DNA from: an uncultured Verrucomicrobiota bacterium
GTDB taxonomy: Bacteria; Verrucomicrobiota; Verrucomicrobiia; Limisphaerales; CAZKNW01
DNA length: 42,437 nucleotides
Reading direction: 5' to 3'
Assembly: GCA_964554035.1 (NCBI GenBank)
Contig: CAZKNW010000001.1
Coordinates: forward strand, 1 to 42,437
Positions 2,896 to 22,966 of this stretch are shown in pieces. The stretch's first letter is position 1. Each line of letters opens with the position of its first letter. The notes under the pieces are model-generated. The model ran no database searches and was not told the DNA's origin. It was given only the letters and a program-made list of their open reading frames with translations. A program made the translations under genes and the position numbers.

Positions 2896-3163
2896 TTCTC
2901 TTACTGAGCCACGGAGGAACACGGGGAGTTGAAATGCATGCATTTCAATGAAGGTCCTATCTCCCTGTCTCACCGAAGCCCATGCGAGGGCGGAAGAATC
3001 AAAGGGTAGGGCCCGTCGCTCCGCGCGGGCCGTTGTTGCGGACGGGGAGTCAGGATGTCCCTTTGCGATTGGATGCCATGCCCGGGCGCTCACGGAGTGA
3101 TCGCCCTACCTTGAGAGGTAAGATTCCAATCGGTGGCTTTTCTGAATCTGCGGGGAACCAATC
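2896..3163 (+). repeat. Structured intergenic repeat, copy A (H1 module lacking its right arm, complete R2 module, tail)
   Basis: Shares long near-identical blocks with 3209-3401, 7728-8049 and 22600-22966: gagccacggaggaacacggggagTTGAAATGCATGCATTTCAA, then gaagcccatgcga...aaagggtagggcccgtcgctccgcgcgggcc...cgggcgctcacggagtgatcgccctacc, then the tail gattccaatc...ggggaaccaatcc. Confidence 0.9.
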
Positions 3164-3208: not shown

Positions 3209-3401
3209 GTTTCTCTCACGGAGCCACGGAGGAACACGGGTGTTGAAATGCATGCATTTCAATAAATGGCCTCTCTCCGTGAATCACCGTGGCTCCGTGA
3301 GAGATATTCTTCCCTGTCTCACCGAAGCCCATGCGAAAGGGGAAGCCCCAAAGGGTAGGGCCCGTCGCTCCGCGCGGGCCGTTGTTGCGGACGGGGAGTC
3401 A
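3209..3401 (+). repeat. Structured intergenic repeat, copy B (complete H1 module, left half of R2 only)
   Basis: Directly follows copy A. It contains a perfect 18-bp inverted repeat, 3212-3229 tctctcacggagccacgg and 3287-3304 ccgtggctccgtgagaga. This encloses the 20-bp palindrome at 3243-3262. The R2 left arm (GTAG at 3355-3358) is present and the right arm is absent. Confidence 0.9.
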
Positions 3402-3437
3402 GAACGCCCCTCATCTGAAATGTGAGATTTGAAATCG

Positions 3438-4964
3438 CTACTCCGCCTTTTTCCTCGCCGCCACCAGGTCGGGATACTTTTCATCGGTATCGCCAATCCT
3501 CTTCTTCAGGTCATCCAGTTGCTTGAGGAGCTTCTTCTGGATCTTGGCGTATTTGGCTGAGCCGAAGACGTTGTTCATCTCATGGGGATCGTTCTGCAGG
3601 TCGTAGAGTTCGAAGTAGGGAGGTGTGGGATCCTTCTTGGCTCCAGGGGCATCCAGTCCGAGGCCATAAAAGAAGATGAGTTTGTGCGTCTTGGTCCGGA
3701 TGCCGTAGTGCGCGGGGTTGTCGTGGTGGGCCATGTGCATCCAGTAGCGGTAATAGGTTGCCTGTGGCCAGTCGGCCGGAGTGTTGCCCTTGAGGTTGGG
3801 CACGAAGCTGCGGCCCTGGAACTGGGAAGGAAAACTTGATCCAGCCACTCCGGCCAGGTCCAGCAGTGTGGGGGCGAAGTCGACGTTGTTGACGATGTCA
3901 TCGAGGACCTTCCCCTTCGGCAGCGAGGCCGGGTGGCGGATGATGAAGGGCATCCGCATGGATTCCTCATACATCCAACGCTTGTCGATGTAGTCGTGCT
4001 CTCCCAGCATGAACCCCTGGTCGGCCGTGTAGATGATGATGGTGTTCTCAAGCTGCCCGGTTTTCTCCAGATGTTCCAGGAGGCGACCTATGTTGTCATC
4101 GACACCCTTCACACAGCGGAGGAACTTCTTCAGGTAGCGCTGGTAGGCGGTGCGGGTGTAGGCCTCGTTGGACAGGGACTCATCCACGAACATGTGATGT
4201 CCCATGTTGCGACGGGTGTTGCGCTTGGAAACGGAGGTGCCGAAGCGGGGAAGGTTTTGTGGGCCGTGGTTGCCCCGCTTCCAGAGGCTTTCGGGTTCGG
4301 GGATGTCGACATCCTCGTAGAGGAAATCATAGCGCTCCGCGTTTTCAAAGTTGTCGTGGGGCGCCTTGAAGTGATGCATCAGGAAGAAGGGCTTGTCCGA
4401 TTTCCTCTGCTTAAGCCACCTCAGTGAGATGTCGGTGATGGCATCCGAGGAATGCGTGTTGTCATAGCCAGCGACCCGGATCGTGTTGTTCGGCCACTTT
4501 TCCTTTCCCCGGACACGAAAGATGGGGTTGAAGTAGGATCCCTGTCCCGGAAGCACCGTGTAGAAGTCAAAGGCGGCGGGTTCCTCCTTGAGGTGCCATT
4601 TGCCGACCATGGCGGTTTCGTAGCCAGCCTTCCTCATCTCAATGGCGACGGTCTGCCTCTCGGGTGGGATCTTTCCGTTGAGCGTGGTGACTCCGTTGGC
4701 GTGGCTGTACTGGCCCGTCATGATGCTGGCGCGACTGGGGGTGCAGATCGAGTTGGAGACAAAGCAGTTTGCGAGGCGGACGCCTTCCCTGGCCAGCCGG
4801 TCGATGTTGGGAGTGGGATTCAAAACCGCCAGCCTGCTGCCATAGGCGCCGATTCCATGGGCCGCATGGTCGTCGGACATGATGTAGAGGATGTTGGGCT
4901 TCCCGGCGGCGTGAACCGAGTTCACCAGCGTCAGGATTGCCGTTAAGAGAAGGCGTTGAATCAT
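3438..4964 (-). CDS. Secreted Cys-type sulfatase (paralog of 6028..7629)
   Basis: ORF trimmed to the ATG at 4962-4964 (MIQRLLLTAILTLVNSVHA signal peptide). It has the metal site SDDH and the formylglycine motif SICTPSRASIMTG. Strong block similarity to the 6028 gene (NPTPNID, YLK.FLRCVKGVD, DKRWMYEES, HYGIRT). Confidence 0.9.
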   Translation of the reverse strand: MIQRLLLTAILTLVNSVHAAGKPNILYIMSDDHAAHGIGAYGSRLAVLNPTPNIDRLAREGVRLANCFVSNSICTPSRASIMTGQYSHANGVTTLNGKIPPERQTVAIEMRKAGYETAMVGKWHLKEEPAAFDFYTVLPGQGSYFNPIFRVRGKEKWPNNTIRVAGYDNTHSSDAITDISLRWLKQRKSDKPFFLMHHFKAPHDNFENAERYDFLYEDVDIPEPESLWKRGNHGPQNLPRFGTSVSKRNTRRNMGHHMFVDESLSNEAYTRTAYQRYLKKFLRCVKGVDDNIGRLLEHLEKTGQLENTIIIYTADQGFMLGEHDYIDKRWMYEESMRMPFIIRHPASLPKGKVLDDIVNNVDFAPTLLDLAGVAGSSFPSQFQGRSFVPNLKGNTPADWPQATYYRYWMHMAHHDNPAHYGIRTKTHKLIFFYGLGLDAPGAKKDPTPPYFELYDLQNDPHEMNNVFGSAKYAKIQKKLLKQLDDLKKRIGDTDEKYPDLVAARKKAE

Positions 4965-5882: not shown

Positions 5883-6027
5883 GTGGGAAGAAGGAGGCTG
5901 CAGATCTTCTTCTCATGGTCCTTCATGCCCTTCATGGTTCCAAATGAATGCGGCCGGAGCTGATGGCGTCTTGTTCTGGACTCCCGGGATTGGATTGATA
6001 CCTTCTCCGTCCACCTCAATTGGATCT

Positions 6028-7629
6028 ATGAAACTGCGTATTGTTACCATTCTGACCGTCTTGCTGTTCTGGTCGGCCTCGCTCTGGGCCAAGGATCAGC
6101 GTCCGAACATCCTCTTCATCTTCACCGACGACCATGCACCTCATGCCATTGGTGCCTATGACGGCTGGTTGAAATCAGTCAACCCGACCCCGAACATCGA
6201 CAAGCTGGCCGGGCAGGGAATGCTTTTCCGGAAGAGCTTCTGTTCCAACTCCATCTGTGGTCCCAGCCGTGCCGTCATCCAGACCGGCAAGCATAGCCAC
6301 AAGAACGGGTTCATGAACAACGGCAACAGCTTTGACTGGAACCAGCAGACCTTTCCCAAGCTCCTCCAGAAGGCCGGATACCAGACCGCCATCTACGGAA
6401 AGAGCCACCTCAAGGGACAGCCGCAGGGTTATGATGACTGGGCCGTCCTCCCCGGGCAGGGGCTCTACTACAACCCCGACATGATCTTCGCGGACGGAAA
6501 GAAGAAGATCGATGGCTACTGTACCGACGTGGTGACTGATCTGGCGGTGGATTACCTGAAGAACAAGCGACAGGCCGACAAGCCCTTCATGGTGATGGTC
6601 CAGCACAAGGCACCTCACCGCAACTGGATGCCCGCTCTGCGTCACCTGCACCTCTATGACGACATCGAGATCCCTGAGCCTGCGACCCTCTTCGACAAGT
6701 GGGAGGACAATGCGCCGCCTGCACGCCATCAGGAACTGGAGATCGATCGTCACATGGATCTCAACTACGACCTTTTCGTCGATCTGACCCCGGAGTTCAA
6801 CCAGCCTGCTTCCCAGAAGCGCCAGGATCGTTCTGCCTGGAACAACATGAAGCGCATGACGCCTGAGCAGCTCAAGGCCTGGCGTGATGCCTACGGTCCC
6901 AAGGATGAGGCCTTCCACAAGGCCAACCTTTCCGGCAAGGACCTCGTGCGTTGGAAGTATCAGCGCTATGCCAAGAACTACCTTCGCTGTGTCAAGGGCG
7001 TGGACGAGAGCGTGGGTCGTCTTCGTGACACGCTCAAGGAGCTGGGCTTGGATGAGAACACCATCGTGATCTACAGCTCCGACCAAGGCTTCTACATCGG
7101 AGACCATGGCTGGTATGACAAGCGCTGGATGTATGAGGAATCCCTGATGATGCCCTTCATCGCCTACTGGCCCGGTGTGACCAAGGCGGGTTCCAAGGAC
7201 AACCACTTGATCCAGAACCTGGATTATGCCGAGACCTTCCTCGACATCGCTGGGGCTCCTATTCCTGGCGACATGCAGGGACGCTCGCTGGTGCCGCTGT
7301 TGAAGGGCAAGAATCCCAAGGACTGGCGCAAGAGCATCTACTATCACTACTACGAGTATCCCAGCGTTCACATGGTGCCCCGTCACTACGGCATCCGGAC
7401 CGAGCGTTACAAGCTGATGCACTTCTATCAGTTTGGAAACGAGTGGGAACTCTACGATCTGAAGAACGATCCGGACGAGCTGACCAACATCTATGGGCAG
7501 CCCAAGCACGCCAAGCTGACCCAACGTCTCAAGAACCAGCTCAAGAAGCTGCAGAAGGATTACGAGGACGACAGCGACATCTCCGAGAAGCCGGAGAGCT
7601 GGCAGAAGGAAGTCCGTCCGCTTGAGTAG
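6028..7629 (+). CDS. Secreted Cys-type sulfatase (paralog of 3438..4964)
   Basis: ORF trimmed to the ATG at 6028 (MKLRIVTILTVLLFWSASLWA signal peptide). It has FTDDH and the motif SICGPSRAVIQTG, and ends at a TAG stop. Confidence 0.9.
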   Translation: MKLRIVTILTVLLFWSASLWAKDQRPNILFIFTDDHAPHAIGAYDGWLKSVNPTPNIDKLAGQGMLFRKSFCSNSICGPSRAVIQTGKHSHKNGFMNNGNSFDWNQQTFPKLLQKAGYQTAIYGKSHLKGQPQGYDDWAVLPGQGLYYNPDMIFADGKKKIDGYCTDVVTDLAVDYLKNKRQADKPFMVMVQHKAPHRNWMPALRHLHLYDDIEIPEPATLFDKWEDNAPPARHQELEIDRHMDLNYDLFVDLTPEFNQPASQKRQDRSAWNNMKRMTPEQLKAWRDAYGPKDEAFHKANLSGKDLVRWKYQRYAKNYLRCVKGVDESVGRLRDTLKELGLDENTIVIYSSDQGFYIGDHGWYDKRWMYEESLMMPFIAYWPGVTKAGSKDNHLIQNLDYAETFLDIAGAPIPGDMQGRSLVPLLKGKNPKDWRKSIYYHYYEYPSVHMVPRHYGIRTERYKLMHFYQFGNEWELYDLKNDPDELTNIYGQPKHAKLTQRLKNQLKKLQKDYEDDSDISEKPESWQKEVRPLE

Positions 7630-7661
7630 GCAGGATCCTAGATCCCAGTGATTTCAGAAAA

Positions 7662-7692
7662 GGCCGCTCCCGAAAGGGCGCGGCCTTTTTAT
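7662..7692 (+). terminator. Rho-independent terminator after the sulfatase 6028..7629
   Basis: GGCCGCTCCC-GAAA-GGGCGCGGCC forms a 10-bp stem with one mismatch and a GAAA tetraloop. It is followed directly by TTTTTATT, 33 nt after the stop codon. Confidence 0.75.
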
Positions 7693-7727
7693 TGCCCCCA
7701 CGCGGAGGCGCAGTGGCGCGGAGGAAT

Positions 7728-8049
7728 AAGACAATACCGTTTCTCTCACGGAGCCACGGAGGAACACGGGGAGTTGAAATGCATGCATTTCGACAAATGT
7801 CCTCTCTCCGTGAATCCCCGTGCCTCAGTGAGAGATATTCCTTCTCCTTTAGGATTCGGAAAATAGCTCATGCGAAAATGGAAGCCCCAAAGGGTAGGGC
7901 CCGTCGCTCCGCGCGGGCTTTTGTTGCGGACGGGGATTCAGGATGTTCCTTTGCGATTGGATGCCAAGCTCGGGCGCTCACGGAGTGATCGCCCTACCTT
8001 TGTGAGGCATGCCTCGATCCTCGGATTCCAATCTGCGGGGAACCAATCC
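7728..8049 (+). repeat. Structured intergenic repeat, copy C (H1, R2, short tail)
   Basis: H1 carries the palindrome variant TTGAAATGCATGCATTTCGA at 7774-7793. R2 is bounded by GTAG 7894-7897 and CTAC 7994-7997. The tail lacks the 17-nt segment ggtggcttttctgaatc seen in copies A and D. Confidence 0.9.
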
Positions 8050-8054
8050 TTTCC

Positions 8055-8750
8055 CTACGGAATTCGAATTACAAAATCATCGTAGTGGACCTCGCGGTCC
8101 ACGGTGGTGATGTTCATGTTGGACTTGGTGGTGTGGGCGATGCCTTCGGACTTGAGGGTGCCCACCAGCTTGTCGTCGATCCATATCTTGAGGACGTCGC
8201 CTTCGATGCGGATGCGCAGGCGGTGCCAGGCCTTGGGATCGATGTCGATCTTGTTGTTGACGGACTTGGTTTTGAGCATGTCCTGGGTGGCCTTGTCGAG
8301 TTTCTCTCCCGCCTTCCTCCTGTCGCGAATCTCCTTCACGAAGATGCCGGTCTTTCCGTCATAAAGAGTGATCGCGTCCTGGCCCACGCCCACGTGGCAG
8401 ATGTGCCCGGCATGGGAGCCCTTGTAGCCGAGGTCGCGGAACATGACACTGAAGCGCTTGGAACCCTCGAACTTGAAGGAGATCTCGACCTCCATGTCGC
8501 TCAGGGGAGGGAGTTCGATGGAGTTGACCGACGGGTGATCGGCGGTCTTGGGGGTGATGCCGACCATGACGCCGTCCTTGACGATGGTTTCGCTCTTCCA
8601 TGACCCCCACTGCTTCTTGAGTGCGCTACCCGAGAAGTCATCCTCGAAGAAGACCTTCTTGAAGGGACCTGCCTGAAGCTGGTTGGAGAGGAGGGTGCTG
8701 AGGGAGAGAACTCCTGCTAGGAGTGTCCTGTGGATGCAGTTTCTGTTCAT
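8055..8750 (-). CDS. Secreted LamG/concanavalin-like (DUF1080-type) protein
   Basis: ORF trimmed to the ATG at 8748-8750 (MNRNCIHRTLLAGVLSLSTLLSNQLQA signal peptide). The pattern FEDDF ... W ... VKDG ... EISFKF ... WHRLRIRIEGDVLKIWIDDKLV is typical of the LamG jelly-roll family. It starts 14 nt after the upstream sulfatase stop. Confidence 0.6.
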   Translation of the reverse strand: MNRNCIHRTLLAGVLSLSTLLSNQLQAGPFKKVFFEDDFSGSALKKQWGSWKSETIVKDGVMVGITPKTADHPSVNSIELPPLSDMEVEISFKFEGSKRFSVMFRDLGYKGSHAGHICHVGVGQDAITLYDGKTGIFVKEIRDRRKAGEKLDKATQDMLKTKSVNNKIDIDPKAWHRLRIRIEGDVLKIWIDDKLVGTLKSEGIAHTTKSNMNITTVDREVHYDDFVIRIP

Positions 8751-22599: not shown

Positions 22600-22966
22600 A
22601 AGACAATGCCGTTTCTCTCGCTGAGCCACGGAGGAACACGGGGAGTTGAAATGCATGCATTTCAACAAATGTCCTTTCTCCGTGAATCACCGTGCCTCTG
22701 TGAGAGATATTCTTCCTCTTTCAGAATCTGGAAGATAGCTCATGACGAGACGCCGCTTGTCCTGCCGAAGCCCATGCGAAGGGGGAAGACCCAAAGGTAG
22801 GGCCCGTCGCTCCGCGCGGGCCTTTGCTGCGAACGGGGATTCAGACGCCTTCATGCGATTGGATACCAGGCCCGGGCGCTCACGGAGTGATCGCCCTACC
22901 TTTGTGAGGCATGCCTCGATCCTCGGATTCCAATCTGTGGCTTTTCTGAATCCTCGGGAAATCAAT
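22600..22966 (+). repeat. Structured intergenic repeat, copy D (H1, junction carrying both linker variants, R2, long tail)
   Basis: Palindrome at 22646-22665. R2 is bounded by GTAG 22797-22800 and CTAC 22896-22899. The linker carries both the agctcatg junction of copy C and the ccgaagcccatgcgaa junction of copies A and B. Confidence 0.9.

Follow-up and report, generated by a model that had tools for sequence, protein, structure and literature searches.

A probable REPIN family in the intergenic DNA of an uncultured salt-marsh Verrucomicrobiota bacterium

The R2 repeat and its setting in the window

The window analysed here, meaning the whole stretch of 42,437 nt, carries four copies of a short repeat, R2, all of them in gaps between convergent genes. 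The flanking genes are a YggS-like gene and a sulfatase gene, a sulfatase gene and a 3-keto-disaccharide-hydrolase-like gene, and a sulfatase gene and a gene of unknown product. Three of the copies are whole doublets of two inverted units, and one is a half copy. The left unit, GTAGGGCCCGTCGCTCCGCGCGGGC, has four exact plus-strand matches in the window (at 3006, 3355, 7894 and 22797), and the right unit, GTAGGGCGATCACTCCGTGAGCGCCC, has three exact minus-strand matches (3084-3109, 7972-7997 and 22874-22899). For the exact left unit no match is expected by chance, and dinucleotide shuffles gave 0 matches for either unit. These exact matches confirm the original prediction, made from the letters of the window, that two inverted GTAG-headed hairpins lie at 7894-7997, 3006-3109 and 22797-22899. 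All three doublets that it listed are present, but the half copy, whose left unit spans 3355-3380, had been omitted. The R2 features of the window are as follows.

3005 to 3110, plus strand: R2 copy A, a whole doublet (left unit 3006-3031, right unit 3084-3109)
3355 to 3403, plus strand: R2 copy B, a half copy (left unit 3355-3380 and the start of the spacer, without a right unit)
7893 to 7998, plus strand: R2 copy C, a whole doublet of 106 nt from GGTAG to CTACC, its limits marked by loose contig ends
7894 to 7919, plus strand: left REP unit of copy C, with a GTAG head, a 9-bp stem, a bulged T and a TCC loop
7920 to 7971, no strand assigned: spacer of copy C, 52 nt, variable between copies except for the blocks adjoining the hairpins
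7972 to 7997, minus strand: right REP unit of copy C, inverted, with a GTAG head, a 9-bp stem, an A-G mismatch and a TCC loop
22796 to 22900, plus strand: R2 copy D, a whole doublet (left unit 22797-22822, right unit 22874-22899)

In copy B, the start of the spacer is followed by unrelated sequence.

The two units are both 26 nt long and are related and non-identical, with arms only ~75% alike. The left-unit hairpin is GGCCCG(t)CGC-TCC-GCGCGGGCC. In copy C it is as originally described, except that the last base of the stem is T (7919), hence a G-T closing pair. The right-unit hairpin is GGCG(a)TCAC-TCC-GTGA(g)CGCC with an outer G-C pair. Here the GTAG-headed hairpin stands as predicted, with the correction that the outermost G of the stem is itself the final base of GTAG, a one-base overlap between head and stem. 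The termini of R2 are perfect 8-bp inverted repeats, GGTAGGGC and GCCCTACC. The units of copy C lie 52 nt apart (7920-7971) rather than the ~48 nt first given. Two spacer blocks that adjoin the hairpins, TGCTGCGGAC and CCArGCyC, are kept among copies. Within the spacer, the block TGCTGCGGACGGGG (window 7925-7936; alignment columns 35-44) is at least 90% conserved and is near-complementary to the 5' arm of the left hairpin, CCCGTCGC; this block could be what is left of a third REP, or could serve an alternative pairing. Pairing between outer flanks aaagg and ccttt, which had been thought to extend the structure, is no feature of the family: across 20 aligned copies only GGTAG and CTACC are kept, and the 3' flanks are unrelated.

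All four copies in the window lie inside a larger mosaic made up of a palindrome (R1), a linker, R2 and a tail. R1 is a palindrome of ~95 nt with a perfect GTTGAAATGCATGCATTTCAAC core, and it occurs at 7742-7835, 2897-2990, 3212-3304 and 22614-22707. Its depth in metagenome runs reaches up to 10 times that of the flanks. Since most R2 sites elsewhere lack R1, the palindrome is a repeat family in its own right. The description of R2 as fused to another hairpin module is thus accurate for this window, while most copies elsewhere stand alone.

A terminator-like hairpin (AAAAGGCCGCTCCC/GGGCGCGGCCTTTT) occupies positions 7658-7689, directly 3' of the sulfatase gene (5944-7629) and before R1 and R2. 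Metatranscriptome contigs of this sulfatase gene stop before the hairpin, and coverage is thin over copy C. When the window was compared with Rfam, only a tRNA passed, and nothing was found on R2 at E ≤1. Weak microRNA-like matches fell on R1, not on R2, and lay far below the gathering score.

Abundance, arrangement and folding of R2 copies

The window is present in about 14 salt-marsh metagenome DNA runs. We aligned the contigs of four of these runs to positions 7300-8500 and computed word depth, which is summed over the whole community and is not a per-genome copy number. Depth was 3.7-6.4 in the single-copy flanks, 4-54 in the R1 core, 36-170 in the left unit and 124-563 in the right unit. 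Relative to the single-copy flanks, this amounts to 10-30 times for the left unit and 33-101 times for the right unit, the maximum of the region. Loose contig ends with mutually different continuations stack at 7888/7889 and at 7998-8002, and these stacks show where the repeated unit ends on either side. The same picture of depth and edges came from a seawater run and from the region of copies A and B. R2 has sharp edges and greatly exceeds R1 in abundance, its right unit most of all. In every DNA run, the right unit (7956-7996) had 2-4 times the summed depth of the left unit (7874-7914). Given this excess, many right units must occur without a canonical left partner.

We then searched JGI metagenome contigs with the exact 26-mer of the right unit. 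The search matched 28 contigs, 27 of which come from one salt-marsh sample series (loci outside the window are designated by L numbers). Together with the window, these contigs hold 30 doublets in at least 17 distinct flank contexts, and most R2 sites elsewhere lack both R1 and the linker. R2 is a discrete unit, independent of R1. In every doublet the order is left(+) then right(-), with a spacer of ~52 nt, and no left-left or right-right pair was seen among the 30. Other arrangements include right-unit singlets (L012, L015/L025 and L030) and a right and a left unit that abut with their heads inward (L018). Doublets of a single spacer type are found in unrelated flanks, for example in window copy C, L006 and L017b. 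At L022, L024, L029 and window copies A/B, copies share their flanks and look like local tandem segmental duplications, not transpositions.

Twenty copies were aligned, and doublet length was 99-105 nt in 19 of them, the other being L029a with 91 nt. Mean pairwise identity was 92% for the GGTAG head and 93% for the left hairpin, compared with 63% for the spacer, 51% for the 5' flank and 30% for the 3' flank. The 98% found for the right hairpin is uninformative, as the copies were picked by an exact match to the right unit; the left unit was not used for selection. The GTAG head, whose absence from other copies had been named beforehand as a possible refutation, is kept: 17 of 20 left units have GGTAG and 18 of 20 right units have CTACC. 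The 5' flank is commonly A-rich across the aligned copies. No target-site duplication was found in any of the 20, the 4-nt flanks of the two sides being unrelated. L006 (600-616) and L027 (1588-1604), which are otherwise unrelated, have a common 5' flank, CAGGCTGTrTGAAAACG, directly before GGTAGGG; this flank may be another small module or a preferred target.

All copies in the window and the metagenome contigs are intergenic. The ORFs on either side are convergent at eight sites, tandem at two and divergent at one, and most of the other sites lie 3' of a gene at the end of a contig.

To assess structure, we folded the units as single-stranded DNA. Each unit gave one dominant hairpin, of -11.0 kcal/mol for the left unit and -10.0 kcal/mol for the right, with z scores against shuffled sequences of -2.6 and -4.0, respectively. 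The whole 121-nt region folded no better than its shuffles (z = -1.06), and the 52-nt spacer had no fold of its own (z = +0.72). The structure of R2 resides in two local hairpins. When this two-hairpin model was applied to the 20 aligned copies, 98.6% of cells were paired, versus 33-51% when the partners were slid; the stem pairs of the left unit alone are kept in 98.9% of cells. Two stem changes are both-sided: C-G is replaced by A-U in both copies of L029, and by U-A in both copies of L022. Each of these compensated changes is probably one event, so there are probably two events in total. A further compensated stem variant, GGGTCCG...CGGACC, occurs in L039. RNAalifold preferred a long hairpin that pairs the left arm with the right, a structure for which we found 0 compensated pairs and which the observed substitutions break. 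Because the compensated changes fit the individual REP hairpins and disrupt the long one, this small body of evidence favours the individual hairpins as the selected structure. Separate REP hairpins are what a hairpin-reading enzyme would require.

We also looked for variation in the presence of R2 at given sites. No empty-site allele was seen at copies A/B, at copy C or at L027 (4-8 runs each), in Logan contigs, from which rare variants are lost and which break off at repeats. In the runs of other studies, the right unit adjoins a diverged version of the orthologous flank at the same place, which points to vertical persistence. At L027 (1153-1698), a 547-nt contig of run X2 has an identical left flank and a spacer that differs by 11 substitutions and 5 indels; gene conversion is a less likely explanation of this contig than a k-mer walk by which the assembly passed into another copy.

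RAYT genes in related genomes

Species-representative genomes were scanned with a 20-mer of the left unit. Of the two genomes matched in this collection, to which the window's own genome evidently does not belong, one is a chance match (Streptomyces) and the other is a 6.0-Mb metagenome-assembled genome of an uncultured member of the Verrucomicrobiae (L002). The match in L002 agrees with the left unit at 25 of 26 bases and lies ~150 nt from the 3' end of a RAYT-like ORF (3346-3843, minus strand), with two more GTAG-headed hairpins between match and gene, the last of which overlaps the stop codon. The ORF has the motifs PDHVHAL (HUH) and YILHNPV (YxxNP), and it matches the NCBIfam model of the REP-associated tyrosine transposase (NF047646, REP_Tyr_transpos) with E = 1e-19 and 70.8 bits, below the 80-bit cutoff. 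Its score falls short because ~30 N-terminal residues of the family, including the YFITIN strand, are missing, and the stretch in their place weakly resembles a second HUH region. The L002 ORF may be a rearranged pseudogene.

The L002 ORF has at least 600 homologues at E ≤1e-5, mostly of ~157 aa, and many of them are named RayT by JGI. All five tested against NF047646 (P0002, P0005, P0006, P0028 and P0103) score above its cutoff of 80, at 80.7-97.2 bits. P0002, at 88.7 bits, is the closest intact relative of the L002 ORF (83% identity), and it aligns to the structure of E. coli TnpA-REP, 4ER8, across the HUH and Tyr (YIxxNP) motifs with E = 3e-9.

We then looked at the sequences that flank RAYT genes of this family at ten distinct loci (L002, L031, L032, L035, L036, L037, L038, L040, L044 and L045). 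In all ten, GC-rich hairpins headed by GGTAGGG stand beside the gene with their heads outward and with loops of 3-4 nt. Nine of the loci have doublets, with spacers of ~0 to ~110 nt, and L036 has one unit on each side. At L035, the locus of P0002, doublets of GGTAGGGCCCGTCGC-GCT-GCGCGGGCC flank the intact RAYT gene on both sides; this REP has the same stem as the left unit of R2, and only the 3-nt loop differs. The outer stem at L036 is that of R2. Beside more distant RAYTs (~70% identity), the head is the same and the stems are others. Judged by these sequences, the R2 architecture matches the cognate repeat type of a verrucomicrobial RAYT family, with the closest REPs accompanying the closest RAYTs. 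No right unit was seen beside a RAYT gene at the loci sampled.

The original prediction had stated that the window holds no RAYT gene, and tblastn with six RAYTs indeed finds none there. The same search found none in the 159 kb formed by the window and the 28 metagenome loci. RAYT genes are single-copy, and their absence from 159 kb therefore carries little weight. In four salt-marsh runs, the L002 RAYT gene was unmatched at ≥80% likeness, though its REP was matched; nucleotide divergence could explain this. Three further RAYTs that we traced to their samples (P0143, P0003 and P0039) all come from samples other than the salt marsh.

At several loci, REPs reach into coding sequence. At 4 of the 10 RAYT loci, the RAYT reading frame is terminated by the TAG within the GTAG head of the downstream REP (...TGG TAG GG...), as listed here.

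L002, 3346-3349: overlap of RAYT stop codon and REP head
L031, 3044-3046: overlap of RAYT stop codon and REP head
L038, 1996-1998: overlap of RAYT stop codon and REP head
L045, 2173-2175: overlap of RAYT stop codon and REP head

Degenerate forms of this overlap are found at L035 and L037. At L031 (2610-2659, P0103) and L038 (1568-1617, P0046), REP doublets lie in frame within the RAYT genes and add ~24 residues after the INCRER motif; at both loci the transposase gene appears to carry its own substrate as an insert. A viral contig, L039 (IMGVR_UViG_3300037420_002072), has an exact R2 left unit in frame in an ORF of 764 aa for the large subunit of terminase (Terminase_6N/6C). The unit is translated as ...GERPARSDGPYLG... 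within the ATPase domain of the terminase. The GGGTCCG...CGGACC variant occupies an upstream part of this reading frame that precedes the terminase domains.

L039, 2568-2593 and 2926-2951: sites of the R2 left unit and of the GGGTCCG...CGGACC variant

Origin of R2 and its relation to known systems

We consider it highly probable that R2 is a REP doublet, or REPIN: two GTAG-tagged REPs, inverted with their heads outward, of the type moved by RAYTs. That reading had been put forward from the window alone, and it is now supported by the anatomy of the element, by its dispersal, by the lack of target-site duplications and by REPs of the same head and stem that flank the RAYTs of relatives. RAYTs are single-domain HUH/Y1 transposases related to the TnpA of IS200/IS605. 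According to the proposed mechanism, each unit would form a hairpin on single-stranded DNA, with a GC stem of 9 bp that has one irregularity and with TCC as the loop. A RAYT would recognise this hairpin together with its 5' GTAG, cut the DNA and rejoin it. The ~106-nt doublet would thereby reach intergenic DNA as a whole, by copying or by movement, and no target-site duplication would arise. We infer that this genome has a RAYT, that both units are its substrates and that R2 has kept its mobility. Should R2 affect the 3' ends of transcripts, that would be a by-product of the sites at which its copies survive.

The serious alternative is that R2 is a fossil REPIN population, spread by an ancestral RAYT that is now lost or inactive, and that its copies persist by descent, by local duplication and perhaps by host use. 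Several observations are consistent with this: three loci show no insertion polymorphism, in the runs of other studies the right unit still adjoins the orthologous flanks at an unchanged position, tandem segmental duplicates are frequent, the related RAYT of L002 is apparently truncated, and no RAYT came from the salt-marsh data examined. However, plain neutral decay would not leave heads and hairpins at 93-98% identity next to spacers at 63%, and doublets of one spacer type stand in unrelated flanks. The absence of a RAYT from 159 kb, moreover, says little in the case of a single-copy gene. On balance we regard a fossil population as unlikely.

Two further explanations dispense with a RAYT altogether. 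R2 could be a host-selected 3'-end element (a bidirectional terminator, an mRNA-stabilising hairpin pair or a protein-binding site) that was spread by recombination without a transposase. Its copies do lie mostly between convergent genes or 3' of genes, about 8 of the 20 are preceded by an A-run and followed by a T-run (L029b and L027 among them), and one metatranscriptome contig contains an R2 copy from another locus. Yet most copies have a weak T-run or none, the sequence 3' of CTACC has only 30% identity, R2 has no Rfam match, and copy C is preceded by a separate terminator-like hairpin (7658-7689). Recombination also leaves unexplained the conserved GTAG head and the hairpins that flank RAYTs, and a phage terminase gene contains an exact left unit in frame. 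These data make a 3'-end element very improbable. The perfect 8-bp inverted repeats at the termini (GGTAGGGC/GCCCTACC), the length of ~106 nt and the multiple copies would also suit a conventional MITE, i.e. an internally deleted DDE-type insertion sequence, but target-site duplications are present at 0 of 20 copies, each end is a conserved hairpin with compensated changes, and single units occur alone. The same ends, moreover, flank transposase genes of the Y1/HUH type and not of the DDE type, and we see next to no chance that R2 is such an element.

To our knowledge, REP/REPIN-RAYT systems have been studied almost only in Proteobacteria, and the Verrucomicrobia are covered by essentially one survey, which concerns Opitutus terrae. 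Taken as a REPIN, R2 is a new sequence family in an uncultured lineage and belongs to a kind of element that is already known; the families of O. terrae were compared with it by their description. The passages of Di Nocera, De Gregorio & Rocco 2013 on which we draw (PMC3733652) report GTAG-tagged REPs in eight phyla including the PVC group, with O. terrae 'highly enriched'. They give head-head dimers with GTAG outside as the commonest, and describe heterodimers, spacers of 20-100 bp, intragenic copies and RAYT genes flanked by GTAG REPs. In the terms of those authors R2 is a head-head heterodimer (PMC3733652), whereas REPIN is the term of Bertels & Rainey 2011 (PMC3116915).

R2 resembles the REPs described in those passages, including those of O. 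terrae, in having GTAG at one end of a GC-rich stem-loop with a stem of 6-9 bp. It likewise resembles the dimers described there in its outward GTAG heads, its differing partner stems, its spacer within 20-100 bp and its association with RAYTs, and its copies are mostly extragenic with an occasional in-frame intragenic one (PMC3733652). Unlike those families, R2 has stems and loops that are the lineage's own, GGCCCGtCGC-TCC and GGCGaTCAC-TCC, the comparison with O. terrae being one of descriptions, and in this window it is embedded in a mosaic with the unrelated palindrome R1.

As in the REPINs of Pseudomonas fluorescens SBW25, two inverted REPs with a short spacer act as one intergenic unit, singlets resemble remnants of doublets, and REPs of the same head and stem flank a single-domain RAYT (PMC3116915). 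R2 departs from the SBW25 elements in that its arms are only ~75% alike and selection appears to act on local hairpins rather than on one long hairpin. The cognate RAYT of R2, furthermore, is seen only in relatives, and excision or insertion polymorphism is known from no R2 locus here. With the BIMEs of E. coli, R2 shares inverted pairs of two different REP types (PMC3479197). The DNA recognised by E. coli TnpA-REP (4ER8; Messing et al. 2012, PMC3479197) is likewise a hairpin with a 5' GTAG, and the verrucomicrobial P0002 aligns with this protein over the HUH motif and the catalytic Tyr, at low similarity (E = 3e-9). In contrast to R2, the dimers of E. coli are, in the passages of the survey cited above, mostly tail-tail and have loops of different lengths (PMC3733652); the R2 lineage is known from sequence alone.

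A broader reading sees the REPIN as the mobile core of the R1-linker-R2-tail mosaic, which would have been block-copied into the 3' gaps of sulfatase loci, with single units also entering coding DNA in frame (the ATPase domain of a phage terminase, RAYT genes). We hold this to be quite unlikely. If true, it would mean that a RAYT system shapes composite elements and protein sequences in marine Verrucomicrobiota.

R2 leaves the understanding of the REP/REPIN class unchanged. What it adds is a REPIN family of defined sequence from uncultured PVC bacteria of the salt marsh, together with a RAYT family of ~157 aa that has at least 600 members and GGTAGGG-headed hairpins at all 10 of the loci sampled. 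It also adds a case in which compensated changes fit local hairpins and not a long hairpin. For annotation, it matters that repeats of the R2 type break assemblies and could pass for regulatory RNAs. They are also useful for strain typing and for the comparative study of how REPIN populations persist.
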